In this document: piece after piece, positions 35,735-42,853 of the stretch
How positions within the stretch are numbered: position 1 is the first letter of the stretch
Layout: every line of letters begins with the position of its first letter
Assembly: GCA_903910445.1 (NCBI GenBank)
Contig: CAIVZR010000046.1
Location: 55,224 to 119,223 of the forward strand
Length of the DNA stretch: 64,000 nucleotides
Reading direction: 5' to 3'
Origin: an uncultured Bacteroidota bacterium
Lineage (GTDB): Bacteria > Bacteroidota > Bacteroidia > UKL13-3
Notes under the pieces: generated by a model
Databases searched by the model: none
What the model saw: only the letters and a program-made list of their open reading frames with translations
Told to the model about the DNA's origin: nothing
Made by a program: the position numbers and the translations under genes

Positions 35735-37216
35735 TTAGAATTTCAAATAGATGAAATTCTGTGCTTCCGAATTATAAAACTGAATCACAAACAATATAAC
35801 TAAGAAAACAACAATCACTTTGAGCAGAAAATGCAATGAATCAAACCCCTTGATTAGATGTTGCTTCCAGGTTGGTGGCGTGAACTGCAAAAAGAGTGCA
35901 ATAAAAAATATCACAAATACGCCCCAGTATATTGATATCCACTGACCAAACAAACTAAAATTGGTTTGTGTGAAAATCATCCGATACATATCACCTGCAT
36001 AAAATAAATCGGGAGCATCGAAAATCACAATGGTAAAAACAACAAAATGAAACGTCAGAAAAACACTTATGAAACGATACCCATTCGGTGACAATTTCGA
36101 TTTCCATCCACGCCTTAAATCTTGAGATGCTACATCCCACCCAATAGCCAATCCATGCATGGCACCCCATAAAATATAAGTTAAACGTGGGCCATGCCAT
36201 ATTCCTGAAATTGTAAAAGTGAGAATACTTGCACAAACCACGCCCACCTTTTTAAATTTACGTAACGAATAATTCAAGGGAGTGAATACATATTCGCTCA
36301 ACCAAGTGGAGAGTGTGATGTGCCATCTCCTCCATAAATCGGTAATATTTTGTGCCATGAAGGGACGATTGAAATTATTGGCAATATCAAAACCAAGTAG
36401 CAATGATATTCCCATCATCATATCGGTATAGCCCGAAAAATCGTAGTAAAATTGTACCGCCCCCATATAAACGGCAATCAAATTCTCCAATCCAGTAAAC
36501 AAGGTAGGCGTGTTAAATACCCGTTCAACAAAATTATTCCAAAGGAAATCGGCAACTAAATATTTCTTAAGCACCCCAAGCATCAACAAAAAGAATGCAC
36601 GACTCATTCTTTCTCTTGTAAATACCGATTTGAGCTTTAATGCAGGAAGCAAATCACGAGCCCTAACGATGGGACCCGCAATGATATTGGGAAAGAACGA
36701 AACATATAACAGATAATCGAAATAGTTTTTCTCTGGCTCTTCAATCATTTCGTTATAGCAATCGAAGATATACGACAAGCTTTTAAACACGTAAAAAGAA
36801 ATACCAATAGGCATTAAGAGAGAGAGTACGGGGGCCTGAAGCTGGGTGCCAAAAGCAGTATTGAACAAGCTTGTGAAGAAAACGGTGTACTTGAAATACA
36901 GTAAACTCCCAATATTCAATGTCAACGAAAAGAGTAGCAAACTAAATTTCCTATTCTCTTTGGCAGTTGCCAGTATGGCTTTGCCTATAATAAAATCGGA
37001 GGCTGCAATCACACACATCAAAATGATATAGAGCCCACTCAATTTATAATAAAAGAACAAGCTAAATATTAAGAGTGCGATATTTCGAGCAGTAACTTTA
37101 CCTGAAATAAGAATATAAATCAAATAAAACGCAGTGAAGAATCCGATGAATAAAACCGAATTGAAAACCATGATATGGCTGGATGAGTATTTTAATATTT
37201 CGAGGATGCGATTCAT
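35735..37216 (-). CDS. MBOAT O-acyltransferase (AlgI/PatA/DltB family)
   Basis: MVFNS, PIGISFY, FFPNIIAGPI, DFSGYTD, NFNRPF, WRRWHITLS, GIWHG; C-terminus FIYLKF. Confidence 0.92.
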   Translation of the reverse strand: MNRILEILKYSSSHIMVFNSVLFIGFFTAFYLIYILISGKVTARNIALLIFSLFFYYKLSGLYIILMCVIAASDFIIGKAILATAKENRKFSLLLFSLTLNIGSLLYFKYTVFFTSLFNTAFGTQLQAPVLSLLMPIGISFYVFKSLSYIFDCYNEMIEEPEKNYFDYLLYVSFFPNIIAGPIVRARDLLPALKLKSVFTRERMSRAFFLLMLGVLKKYLVADFLWNNFVERVFNTPTLFTGLENLIAVYMGAVQFYYDFSGYTDMMMGISLLLGFDIANNFNRPFMAQNITDLWRRWHITLSTWLSEYVFTPLNYSLRKFKKVGVVCASILTFTISGIWHGPRLTYILWGAMHGLAIGWDVASQDLRRGWKSKLSPNGYRFISVFLTFHFVVFTIVIFDAPDLFYAGDMYRMIFTQTNFSLFGQWISIYWGVFVIFFIALFLQFTPPTWKQHLIKGFDSLHFLLKVIVVFLVILFVIQFYNSEAQNFIYLKF

Positions 37217-37248
37217 TGAGAATTCGGAATGCTTAATATTTACAGCGT

Positions 37249-41364: not shown

Positions 41365-41371
41365 TGCTTCG

Positions 41372-42853
41372 TTACTTGGCTGCATGCTGTATCATTTTTT
41401 CTAGCTCCTTACGATCGGTTTTCCCATTGCTGTTCAACGGAAAAGCTACCAATGAATGGATCGCTGCAGGAATCATATATTCTGGCATTTGTGTTTTTAA
41501 ATAATCAATCACCTCACTTACTTCCTTATTTAGTTGCTCCACAAATAAAAATATTTGAGATATACCCATGGCGTTCGGCACTGCCACAGCAGCCACGCCA
41601 CTGATTGATGTATACACTCGAACGTGATGTTCAATTTCGCTTAACTCTACTCTAAATCCGCCCATCACTTTTACCTGATAATCCTTTCTGCCAGCATATA
41701 ATATCTCACCATCCTTATCGGCATAAGCTAAATCGCCTGTGCGATAGTAGCGAGCTTCGTTATACATAAAGAAAGATGAAGCATTTTTCTCTTCATTTTT
41801 CAAATACCCTTGTGTTACTTGTGGGCCTCCCAAACACAATTCTCCTTTAGCATTTGTTGGCTTGCTCTCCTCATCAACAATAAGGATATCGCAGTTTTTC
41901 ATGGGATTCCCAATGCATACCATCCCATTATTTTCTTTGAGTACATCGCTACAATCGTAGGTCATACAAAAGATGGTTGCCTCTGTAGGGCCATATACAT
42001 TTTGCACTTTTGCATTTGGGATACATCGCTTCCATTCTTGAGTGATATCGGCATAGAGTGCTTCTCCGCAAAATAATGAATACTTCAATTCGGGCAATTC
42101 AATCTCTGAGAAATAGGGGCGCAAGTAGGAAAGTATGGATGGCACCATCAAGGTGAACGTTAGTTTATGATTTTCGAGTAGCTCATAAATAAACATATAC
42201 TTCACCGAATCAAAGGGCACAGTATAAGCACAAGCGCCTTTAAGTAAAGGAACCAAATACGACATCACGGATAAGTCGAAGGTGATATCAAACATTTGAA
42301 GAAATCGATCATTGGAATTGAGTTCATAACCCAGCGCAAAGAATGAATCGATAAATGATTCCAAGTTATGATGAGTGATGGGTACACCCTTAGGCACTCC
42401 AGTGCTTCCAGAGGTGAACAAAATATAAGCGATATCGTTTGGAGAAATAATATGATTTCTTTCAAAAGATGCGGATGATAAATCGGCAACAGTTATAACC
42501 TTCGTTTTGGAAATATCGATTAGGTGTTCAAAAGAATAAGAAGTATTGGGCGCAAATACAAAGCACAACTCCGATTGCTCGATAATGCTCGTATTGCGAT
42601 CCATGGGATTGGCAGGATGAATAGGTACATATGCCGCCCCCGATAGCATGATACCAATAATTGCTGCATAGGTTTCAAAGGCATCGTAGCCAATAACACC
42701 CACAGGCAAACGTGATGTATTATGCAAATTCAAATAACTAGAAATGGCTTGCGCACGCTCTTGCAAAGCCCCGTAAGAATAGTATTGTTCTCTGATATAA
42801 AAAGCATTCTTATCACGATAGGTGACCAAACTCTGCTCTAACGCTGAAACCAT
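41372..42853 (-). CDS. Stand-alone amino acid adenylation enzyme (DltA/AlmE-like)
   Basis: YILFTSGSTGVPKG, FDLSVM, FCGE, YGPTEAT, YRTGD, FRVELSEIE, NGKTDRK. Confidence 0.88.
   Translation of the reverse strand: MVSALEQSLVTYRDKNAFYIREQYYSYGALQERAQAISSYLNLHNTSRLPVGVIGYDAFETYAAIIGIMLSGAAYVPIHPANPMDRNTSIIEQSELCFVFAPNTSYSFEHLIDISKTKVITVADLSSASFERNHIISPNDIAYILFTSGSTGVPKGVPITHHNLESFIDSFFALGYELNSNDRFLQMFDITFDLSVMSYLVPLLKGACAYTVPFDSVKYMFIYELLENHKLTFTLMVPSILSYLRPYFSEIELPELKYSLFCGEALYADITQEWKRCIPNAKVQNVYGPTEATIFCMTYDCSDVLKENNGMVCIGNPMKNCDILIVDEESKPTNAKGELCLGGPQVTQGYLKNEEKNASSFFMYNEARYYRTGDLAYADKDGEILYAGRKDYQVKVMGGFRVELSEIEHHVRVYTSISGVAAVAVPNAMGISQIFLFVEQLNKEVSEVIDYLKTQMPEYMIPAAIHSLVAFPLNSNGKTDRKELEKMIQHAAK

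Follow-up and report, generated by a model that had tools for sequence, protein, structure and literature searches.

A putatively carrier-protein-fed MBOAT-SGNH system of an uncultured Bacteroidota bacterium may esterify an envelope glycan, most likely peptidoglycan, with an amino-acid-type group

Peptidoglycan O-acetylation controls autolysins and blocks lysozyme, and surface charge and resistance to antimicrobial peptides are set by teichoic acid D-alanylation. Each of these modifications uses an MBOAT together with an SGNH protein. A six-gene cluster of an uncultured freshwater Bacteroidota bacterium raises the question of which group such a pair moves, and to which glycan, when an adenylation (A) enzyme, a GNAT-fold acyltransferase and a carrier protein (CP) are encoded beside it. 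The cluster lies in a 64,000-nucleotide stretch of contig CAIVZR010000046.1 (G000:C46:55224-119223; hereafter the window), and the source assembly, G000, comprises 3.43 Mb in 107 contigs and is 99.96% complete. We propose a carrier-protein-fed MBOAT-SGNH envelope acylation system, built on the ape1b-ape1c-patA-type cluster of Bacteroidota, with an amino-acid cargo and most likely peptidoglycan as acceptor. From the sequences and models described below, we give this composite reading an even chance of being right, given that 'most likely' qualifies its less certain parts.

The open reading frame (ORF) check of the window recovered six minus-strand ORFs exactly where an earlier note on this DNA had placed six tightly packed genes (Table 1). 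Two junctions are short gaps, of 24 nt between the GNAT and CP genes and of 32 nt between the SGNH2 and MBOAT genes. The others are overlaps, of 4 nt at CP/SGNH1 (40453/40456) and 14 nt at SGNH1/SGNH2 (38984/38997), both already listed in that note, and of 14 nt at A/GNAT, which is added here. The identities that the note had read from the letters (adenylation enzyme, GNAT, carrier with a WDSL motif, SGNH, SGNH with two LysM domains, MBOAT) agree with Pfam and NCBIfam, and public annotation gives the proteins generic names only. Because the whole cluster is syntenic between tdk and cmk in another species of the genus (G301), at 64-73% amino-acid identity, it is not a chance arrangement.

PMC12148441 describes PatA as auto-acetylating a tyrosine that belongs to a C-terminal FxYxxF motif on two additional helices, and DltB as having neither helices nor motif and being served instead by the microprotein DltX. 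The window MBOAT (Pfam MBOAT, 3e-25) ends in FIYLKF, an FxYxxF motif, and H299, H341, F488 and Y490 are invariant in 25 carrier-linked homologues. Its only NCBIfam match is to the DltB model TIGR04091 (176.9 bits, cut-off 375). Its matches among PDB sequences are to DltB only and span residues 131-401, so that residues 402-493 (~90) are left without a counterpart. Given the FIYLKF end, the invariant residues and the ~90 C-terminal residues beyond the DltB alignment, the MBOAT is, by its predicted architecture, PatA-type and not DltB-type. The listed C-termini of 49 carrier-context MBOAT ORFs (50 rows, from which one spurious overlapping frame was dropped) also show the tyrosine motif. The same 2025 source states that a PatA-type MBOAT can take acetate straight from acetyl-coenzyme A (acetyl-CoA) and that a carrier protein is absent from MBOAT/SGNH pathways apart from Dlt (PMC12148441). 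For the window MBOAT, the co-operonic carrier gene and the separate clade described below argue against a direct acyl-CoA donor.

The carrier itself matches Pfam PP-binding (1.5e-04) and, in NCBIfam, only weak generic acyl carrier protein (ACP) models; W37, D38, S39, L40 and H42 are invariant in 25 homologues. When its profile was compared with the PDB, the best match was 2lml, a 'putative acyl carrier protein' (3.7e-27), followed by fatty-acid ACPs, and no DltC was found among the 60 matches listed. Complex prediction from the MBOAT and carrier alignments gave scores of 0.22 and 0.27 (mark 0.32), which we count neither for nor against an interaction.

The earlier note had proposed checking whether the front end (A, GNAT, CP) and an MBOAT-SGNH back end co-occur elsewhere. 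A metagenome scan with the GNAT profile yielded 79 loci. The A enzyme lies upstream of the GNAT in 64 of 69 (counted where at least 400 nt of flank were available), a carrier lies downstream in 63 of 72, and a same-strand MBOAT is found within 7 kb in 37 of 55, so that the A-GNAT-CP order beside an MBOAT recurs in dozens of independent loci. Some GNAT loci have the MBOAT upstream or on the opposite strand, and some have none. In 34 of 39 carrier-MBOAT pairs the carrier directly precedes the MBOAT, with a gap of -30 to 169 nt. Three different MBOAT/SGNH back ends are joined by this front end. The window-type back end recurs in metagenome loci L094, L096, L097, L100 and L105. In G333 the A, GNAT and CP genes are accompanied by a gene for an AlgJ/AlgX-like protein and by another MBOAT gene, whose product ends in FLYFQF.

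Seen from the back end, a phylum-wide sample of 301 genomes contains 53 with SGNH1 homologues, G000 being one of them, and the gene content of 40 loci around them was examined. An MBOAT stands beside the SGNH gene(s) in 31 of these, 26 of them without a carrier; nine have no MBOAT within the stretch examined. In four of the 40 (L037, L059, L066, L075) the SGNH pair contains or adjoins LysM-like segments. The other five loci with an MBOAT, all carrier-linked (L048, at 8349-14023, and L057, L062, L063 and L076; families f30 and f39) share a different layout of five genes, in the order small SGNH (242 aa), anchored Ape1-like SGNH (~470 aa), 570-aa AMP-binding enzyme, carrier and MBOAT. Here the AMP-binding enzyme is just 23% identical to the window's A enzyme, the carrier reads GWDSL and the MBOAT ends in PFIYFQF.

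The MBOATs were placed in a quick maximum-likelihood tree of 79 sequences with Shimodaira-Hasegawa-like approximate likelihood-ratio (SH-aLRT) support. Those with Ape1-type partners form a clade of 42 rows (98), within which 29 carrier-less MBOATs make up one side of a branch (99). The window-type MBOATs (5 rows, 99) and the other carrier-linked type (8 rows, 97) both fall outside the carrier-less branch. The split is not simply taxonomic, since carrier-linked and carrier-less MBOATs are both found within family f30 and within the window's genus. We consider it likely that the carrier delivers an acyl group to the window's MBOAT-SGNH pair, which is the core of our proposal.

The pathway may be pictured in five steps, all of them inferred from family knowledge. 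The DltA-like enzyme would adenylate a small amino acid and load it onto the phosphopantetheine arm of the 80-aa carrier. The GNAT, with acyl-CoA, would then cap the free alpha-amine of the tethered amino acid, a step that would be optional in the wider family. Thereafter the MBOAT would take the acyl group from the carrier at the cytoplasmic face and pass it to Tyr490 of FIYLKF on the periplasmic side, in the manner of PatA with acetate and of DltB through DltX. The anchored SGNH1 would receive the group on Ser143 and esterify a hydroxyl of a periplasmic glycan, most likely the glycan strand of peptidoglycan. Finally, the LysM-bearing SGNH2 would sit on the same glycan and would most likely be the corresponding esterase, taking the group off again wherever turnover requires it.

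Pointers to the acceptor of such a pathway come from the two SGNH proteins. Both match Pfam Lipase_GDSL_2 (SGNH2 at 4.1e-14), and neither matches the DltD family PF04914 at E<=0.01. Among PDB sequences both match the peptidoglycan O-acetylesterase Ape1 (4k3u; 3.1e-09 for SGNH1 and 1.3e-18 for SGNH2). An AlphaFold2 (AF2) model of SGNH1 (pLDDT 84), whose N-terminal helix 2-25 forms the anchor, was compared by Foldseek and resembles Ape1 of N. meningitidis and C. jejuni with template modelling (TM) scores of 0.79-0.83 and E values of about 1e-23 to 1e-25. For 4k3u itself the values are E 6e-25 and TM 0.81-0.83, and for the next fold E 4e-8 and TM about 0.3. In SGNH1, G141-D142-S143, N356 and H457 are invariant in 28 homologues. 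An alignment of 30 homologues gives the catalytic blocks as GDS, GxND and DxxH in SGNH2 and as GDS, GxN and (D/E)GH in SGNH1, which has one residue fewer between the catalytic acid and His; both proteins keep the Ser, Asn and acid-His set of Ape1. Neither the searches of PDB sequences with SGNH1 and SGNH2 nor the Foldseek listing for SGNH1 contained a PatB chain, in a library whose PatB content was unchecked. SGNH2 additionally carries LysM (PF01476, 1.1e-29) in two stretches, at residues ~470-513 and 539-581; LysM binds GlcNAc-containing glycans generally.

The order of these genes also has a precedent. PMC1199599 gives the gene order ape1b, ape1c, pat for Bacteroides and Porphyromonas, and records that peptidoglycan from B. 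fragilis and B. thetaiotaomicron carries base-labile acetate. In the window, SGNH1, SGNH2 and MBOAT follow this order, a comparison made by order and by matches to Ape1, not with the Bacteroides proteins themselves.

A further pointer comes from the chromosomal slot between cmk and tdk. In G000, G301 and G305 (the last near-identical to G000), this slot holds the six-gene cluster together with a gene for a Glucosaminidase-domain protein. In their congener G306 (L174, G306:C34, 8357-14250), it holds a classical SGNH-SGNH-MBOAT cluster that has no carrier gene, lies on the opposite strand and is succeeded by genes for MbnP and a di-haem peroxidase (MauG-like), and in G304 (L175, G304:C10, 6534-7592) a single 352-aa AT3-family acyltransferase. 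The closest relative of the classical MBOAT in G000, G301 and G305 is the carrier-linked MBOAT, at 35-36% identity. Because the two clusters occupy the same slot in congeners, their positional equivalence, the best pointer that we have, hints that the carrier-fed cluster does the classical cluster's job on the same target. The earlier note had taken the LysM domains to point to peptidoglycan; the pointers now go beyond LysM to the Ape1 type of both SGNH proteins by sequence (for SGNH1 also by fold), the gene order and the slot. Provided that the carrier does deliver the group, we lean somewhat towards peptidoglycan as the acceptor.

The cargo depends in the first place on the A enzyme. It matches Pfam AMP-binding (7.7e-66), and its best curated family is the NCBIfam DltA subfamily NF003417, at a sub-threshold 322.3 bits (cut-off 476). 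It also stays below the cut-offs of the DltA equivalog TIGR01734 (304.3 bits, cut-off 559.85) and of the AA-adenyl-dom model TIGR01733 (316.8 bits, cut-off 317.4). Against the PDB it scores 224 bits with DltA 7r27 and 206.6 bits with the second A domain of LgrA. Its FDLSV (FD(L)SV) and NGKTDR segments align with the matching motifs of the LgrA A domains, and the A4 Asp and A10 Lys are kept. The A4 aspartate binds the alpha-amine, and the A10 lysine belongs to the adenylation motifs of the nonribosomal peptide synthetase type. An alpha-amino acid as the predicted substrate is consistent with these kept motifs.

Ten pocket positions of the A enzyme were placed by the family's motif positions, and no amino acid is named from them. 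The resulting string, DLMSLCVIFK, is found in 14 of 49 related A enzymes, including those of G301, G333 and metagenome relatives of just 45-66% overall identity. A second group of 13 of the 49 shares DVQSITFIYK, and one locus (L117) encodes two A enzymes with different strings. A tblastn search of plasmids gave no genuine dltA. On a Segatella copri plasmid (L173, NZ_CP085933.1, 8947-12845), a locus resembling those for capsule or O-antigen encodes, in a row, an A enzyme 38.5% identical to the window's, an ACP, an acyltransferase of the AAC(3) family and an alanine racemase. This is no more than a hint at D-alanine. The gene row as such suggests cytoplasmic D-alanylation of a sugar via a carrier protein.

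Between the A enzyme and the carrier stands the GNAT (Pfam Acetyltransf_1, 2.4e-07), a member of a small, rare family, of which a search of 5.8 billion proteins gave only 28 clusters at E<=1e-5. It is present in 5 of 61 related genomes including G000, in one only weakly, and in 2 of the 401 genomes of a phylum-wide sample, namely G000 and one with a weak partial match. Its AF2 model (pLDDT 95) has GNATs as its top Foldseek matches throughout, at E about 1e-9 to 1e-7. R146 is invariant, G147 nearly so and Y187 conserved, and the CoA-binding pattern R/Q-x-x-G-x-G/A is present. Clusters of A, CP and MBOAT that lack a GNAT of the window type exist in G127 and G289, and the GNAT is for that reason taken to be an optional module. 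With carrier delivery granted, an N-acylated amino acid is a plausible cargo, though with somewhat less than an even chance.

Several observations weigh against the composite reading. The carrier is, by its sequence matches, not DltC-like and stands nearer to fatty-acid-type ACPs, and the nearest folds of the GNAT in the Foldseek listing are generic acetyl-CoA GNATs, which are silent on its substrate. No A enzyme lies upstream in 5 of 69 GNAT loci, and 18 of 55 have no same-strand downstream MBOAT, some of these being capsule-like with DegT or GT2 genes. The earlier note had made its proposal depend on the A, GNAT and ACP genes staying with the MBOAT and SGNH genes; this holds for the majority in the metagenome counts given above but not in two of the five window-type loci (L094, L100), where no A gene is adjacent, so that GNAT and CP may act without one or the A gene may lie elsewhere. 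The LysM protein is missing in L100 and L105. The front end is also combined with AlgJ/AlgX-like back ends, typical of exopolysaccharide acetylation; because of this and of the capsule-like loci, the front end alone is uninformative on the acceptor. The role of ape1b-ape1c-pat in peptidoglycan O-acetylation is itself an inference in PMC1199599. The MBOAT tree, lastly, carries no bootstrap, and its groups come from different samplings.

The acceptor could instead be another periplasmic or surface glycan, such as lipopolysaccharide (LPS) core or O-antigen, a protein O-glycan, poly-GlcNAc or another exopolysaccharide. The AlgJ/AlgX-like back ends, the capsule-like loci, the general GlcNAc affinity of the LysM family and the two loci without LysM would all suit such an acceptor, as would the presence of two SGNH1-like loci in several f30 genomes, because of which the two cluster types may not be redundant there. 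We nevertheless regard it as unlikely for the window. Both SGNH proteins match the peptidoglycan O-acetylesterase Ape1 specifically, with no other solved fold near SGNH1, the slot is shared with the classical cluster of a congener, a Glucosaminidase-domain gene is adjacent, and the genes on either side of the cluster in the window include none for glycosyltransferases or export.

In another reading, the same machinery would carry a plain aminoacyl group with a free amine, for example D-alanine, giving a cationic ester; the GNAT would then be employed otherwise, such as in acetylating a side product, in regulation or in self-protection. An A enzyme whose nearest curated family and nearest stand-alone PDB enzyme are both DltA would fit such a cargo, and so would the alanine racemase beside the Segatella copri relative and the GNAT-free clusters of G127 and G289. 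But the GNAT gene lies between those of A and CP and overlaps the former, its position is kept across the metagenome loci, its product retains the CoA-binding and catalytic-tyrosine features of active GNATs, and the only obvious amine in the cassette would be that of the tethered amino acid. On balance a free-amine cargo seems rather improbable to us.

It is more improbable still that the GNAT loads the carrier with acetyl or another acyl group from acyl-CoA, so that the cargo would be a simple acyl group and the A enzyme would provide an alternative or additional one. GNAT-like loading domains act in this way in some polyketide synthases. The GNAT-CP-SGNH-MBOAT loci without an adjacent A gene (L094, L100) would fit such loading, and related loci use yet other loaders, namely FkbH-like proteins and the 570-aa AMP-binding enzyme. 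The A enzyme is, however, adjacent in 64 of the 69 GNAT loci. Moreover, since a PatA-type MBOAT can take acetate directly from acetyl-CoA (PMC12148441), a carrier detour for acetate would be of no obvious use. That front end and back end are merely independent neighbours, with the MBOAT O-acetylating peptidoglycan from acetyl-CoA, is very improbable even though the back end is common without a carrier, because gene order is conserved (junctions of at most 32 nt across all six genes, the carrier directly before the MBOAT in most pairs, one front end travelling with three back ends) and carrier-linked MBOATs are phylogenetically separate, also within f30 and one genus.

The proposed carrier-fed system resembles several known ones in part. 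With the PatA/PatB/Ape1 clusters of peptidoglycan O-acetylation it shares an MBOAT with a fused C-terminal FxYxxF tyrosine motif and a conserved histidine, partners that are periplasmic or membrane-anchored and, with the ape1b-ape1c-pat type of Bacteroides and Porphyromonas, two Ape1-family SGNH genes in the same order upstream of the MBOAT gene; a classical cluster occupies the same slot in a congener. It differs from them in its co-operonic A enzyme, GNAT and carrier, whereas PatA uses acetyl-CoA and no carrier, in an MBOAT outside the carrier-less clade and in the two LysM domains of SGNH2, and no PatB (Ape2)-type protein was identified in the window cluster.

With the Dlt system (DltA, DltC, DltB, DltX, DltD) it shares the logic of an A enzyme that loads a carrier and of an MBOAT and an SGNH-fold protein that move the cargo to a polymer, and DltA is the A enzyme's best curated family. 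It departs from that system in that none of the DltA and DltB models reaches its cut-off, the carrier does not resemble DltC, proteins of the Ape1 type serve as SGNH partners, there is an additional GNAT and the host is a diderm that makes 3-deoxy-D-manno-oct-2-ulosonic acid (Kdo). The window MBOAT bears the shuttle motif itself, so no DltX would be needed. The earlier note had read the cluster as a Dlt-type front end on a PatA/PatB-type back end. A carrier front end on a PatA-type MBOAT with its FxYxxF motif stands, but both SGNH proteins are Ape1-like and no PatB-type protein was identified among the matches listed; nor did a closer likeness to Dlt survive for the carrier (no DltC among the 60 listed PDB matches) or for the SGNH proteins (no DltD family match).

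Exopolysaccharide O-acetylation by AlgI/AlgJ/AlgF/AlgX and WssH/WssI likewise pairs a PatA-type MBOAT with a periplasmic SGNH-like transferase, and relatives of the G333 type use an AlgJ/AlgX-like partner. The window cluster differs in having Ape1-type and not AlgX-type partners, a carrier front end and no flanking polymer synthase genes. In the AlmE/AlmF/AlmG system of Vibrio cholerae, a DltA-like enzyme and a small carrier supply glycine for lipid A; the transferase there is a lipid A acyltransferase of the cytoplasmic face, with neither an MBOAT-SGNH pair nor a GNAT.

Table 1 Features of the gene cluster and its upstream region (positions in the window).
Feature	Positions	Strand	Remarks
A enzyme, stand-alone DltA-like amino-acid adenylation enzyme, 493 aa	41372..42853	-	AMP-binding; proposed cytoplasmic carrier loader
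GNAT-fold acyltransferase, 221 aa	40720..41385	-	small rare family; proposed N-acylation of carrier-bound amino acid
Carrier protein (CP), 80 aa	40453..40695	-	PP-binding; phosphopantetheine serine in W37-D38-S39-L40
SGNH1, membrane-anchored Ape1-type, 490 aa	38984..40456	-	proposed periplasmic acyl-transferase partner of MBOAT
SGNH2, secreted Ape1-type with two C-terminal LysM, 582 aa	37249..38997	-	proposed glycan-bound esterase or second transferase
PatA-type MBOAT, 493 aa	35735..37216	-	acyl-shuttle motif FIYLKF fused at the C-terminus
Glucosaminidase-domain protein, small and secreted, possible accessory, 159 aa	43084..43563	-	PF01832 2.3e-13; signal-peptide-like N-terminus
Candidate Bacteroidota-type -7 promoter motif TAnnTTTG	42996..43003	-	150 nt upstream of A gene; regex scan

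The genes around the cluster are housekeeping genes (cmk, tdk, a KdsB-like cytidylyltransferase gene and Sua5), with cmk following the MBOAT gene after a 12-nt gap; the earlier note's statement that polysaccharide biosynthesis genes do not flank the locus is borne out, and the Glucosaminidase-domain gene is a new element of its surroundings. That gene is on the same strand, 230 nt upstream, and is kept beside the cluster in G301 at 48% identity. It adjoins the cluster in two lineages and was not found beside the cluster's metagenome relatives. A regex scan for TAnnTTTG, a Bacteroidota-type -7 consensus that marks a candidate promoter, matched intergenic DNA on the minus strand twice, at 43003 and 43606, but nowhere in the short gaps that separate genes of the cluster. 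A scan for sigma-70 promoters and terminators was uninformative, because its counts were no higher than in shuffles and its consensus is ill-suited to Bacteroidota. A gene for a 456-aa secreted 'Putative esterase' (PF00756; 33558-34928, minus strand), between an AIR-synthase-like gene and cmk, was considered as a further member. It was found only in G000, the near-identical G305 and L004, a record nearly identical to the window, and is absent from this place in G301, G304 and G306; its absence from G301 led us to exclude it.

Other loci show how variable such cassettes are. G000 itself encodes two more MBOATs (G000:C70:4159-5349, L001, and G000:C65:2784-3983, L002), of 466 and 493 aa and with FIYFQF at both C-termini. 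In each case the next gene encodes a protein of 314-343 aa that has no clear family (one weak DUF1574 match), and the short flanks available contain no carrier gene. Five metagenome loci (L110, L111, L116, L117, L119) have two to five GNAT paralogues and one or two A enzymes, in L119 as a 1006-aa A-A fusion. They also hold FkbH-like proteins beside a carrier and genes for ketoacyl-ACP synthase III (KAS III), short-chain dehydrogenase/reductase (SDR) and extra ACPs, and all face an SGNH-CP-MBOAT unit on the opposite strand. These loci suggest more complex carrier-borne cargos. In two of them (L110, 4380-6706; L116, 3289-5621), NlpC/P60+SH3 and enolase-superfamily (MR_MLE) genes adjoin, identified by Pfam in L110 and inferred in L116 from like-sized ORFs in the same order; the pair resembles the YkfC/YkfB enzymes of murein-peptide recycling. 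The A-GNAT-CP cassette is also seen without an MBOAT, beside a DegT-type aminotransferase or a family-2 glycosyltransferase (L169, 4769-8327; L123, 1627-7258), and may also serve cytoplasmic sugar modification.

The window cluster belongs to a broader family of carrier-fed MBOAT-SGNH systems. Its parts and its transfer chemistry were known before; what is new is a carrier front end with a GNAT wired to a PatA-type, Ape1-partnered back end. In the open full-text literature we found no description of an adenylation-GNAT-carrier-MBOAT-SGNH system, although supplements or papers outside that literature may mention one. A bolder generalization, which we offer tentatively and judge doubtful as a whole, is that this modular family writes non-acetyl esters on peptidoglycan and other envelope glycans, the loader determining whether these are N-acyl-amino acids, dipeptide-like or glyceryl-derived groups. 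Here, O-(N-acyl-aminoacyl)ation would replace O-acetylation of the strand, and would have an eraser of its own, anchored by LysM, and perhaps also a glucosaminidase adapted to it.

Wiring to carrier proteins, with several kinds of loader, thus extends to PatA-type MBOATs that have the shuttle tyrosine fused to them, and the cluster suggests that the bacterial envelope bears a chemical decoration not described so far. Were peptidoglycan the acceptor, an amino-acid-type ester would be found on the glycan strand for the first time, and O-(N-acyl-aminoacyl)ation, if true, would be a new peptidoglycan modification. Such a modification would bear on resistance to lysozyme and lytic transglycosylases, on immune recognition of muropeptides and on bacterial competition.

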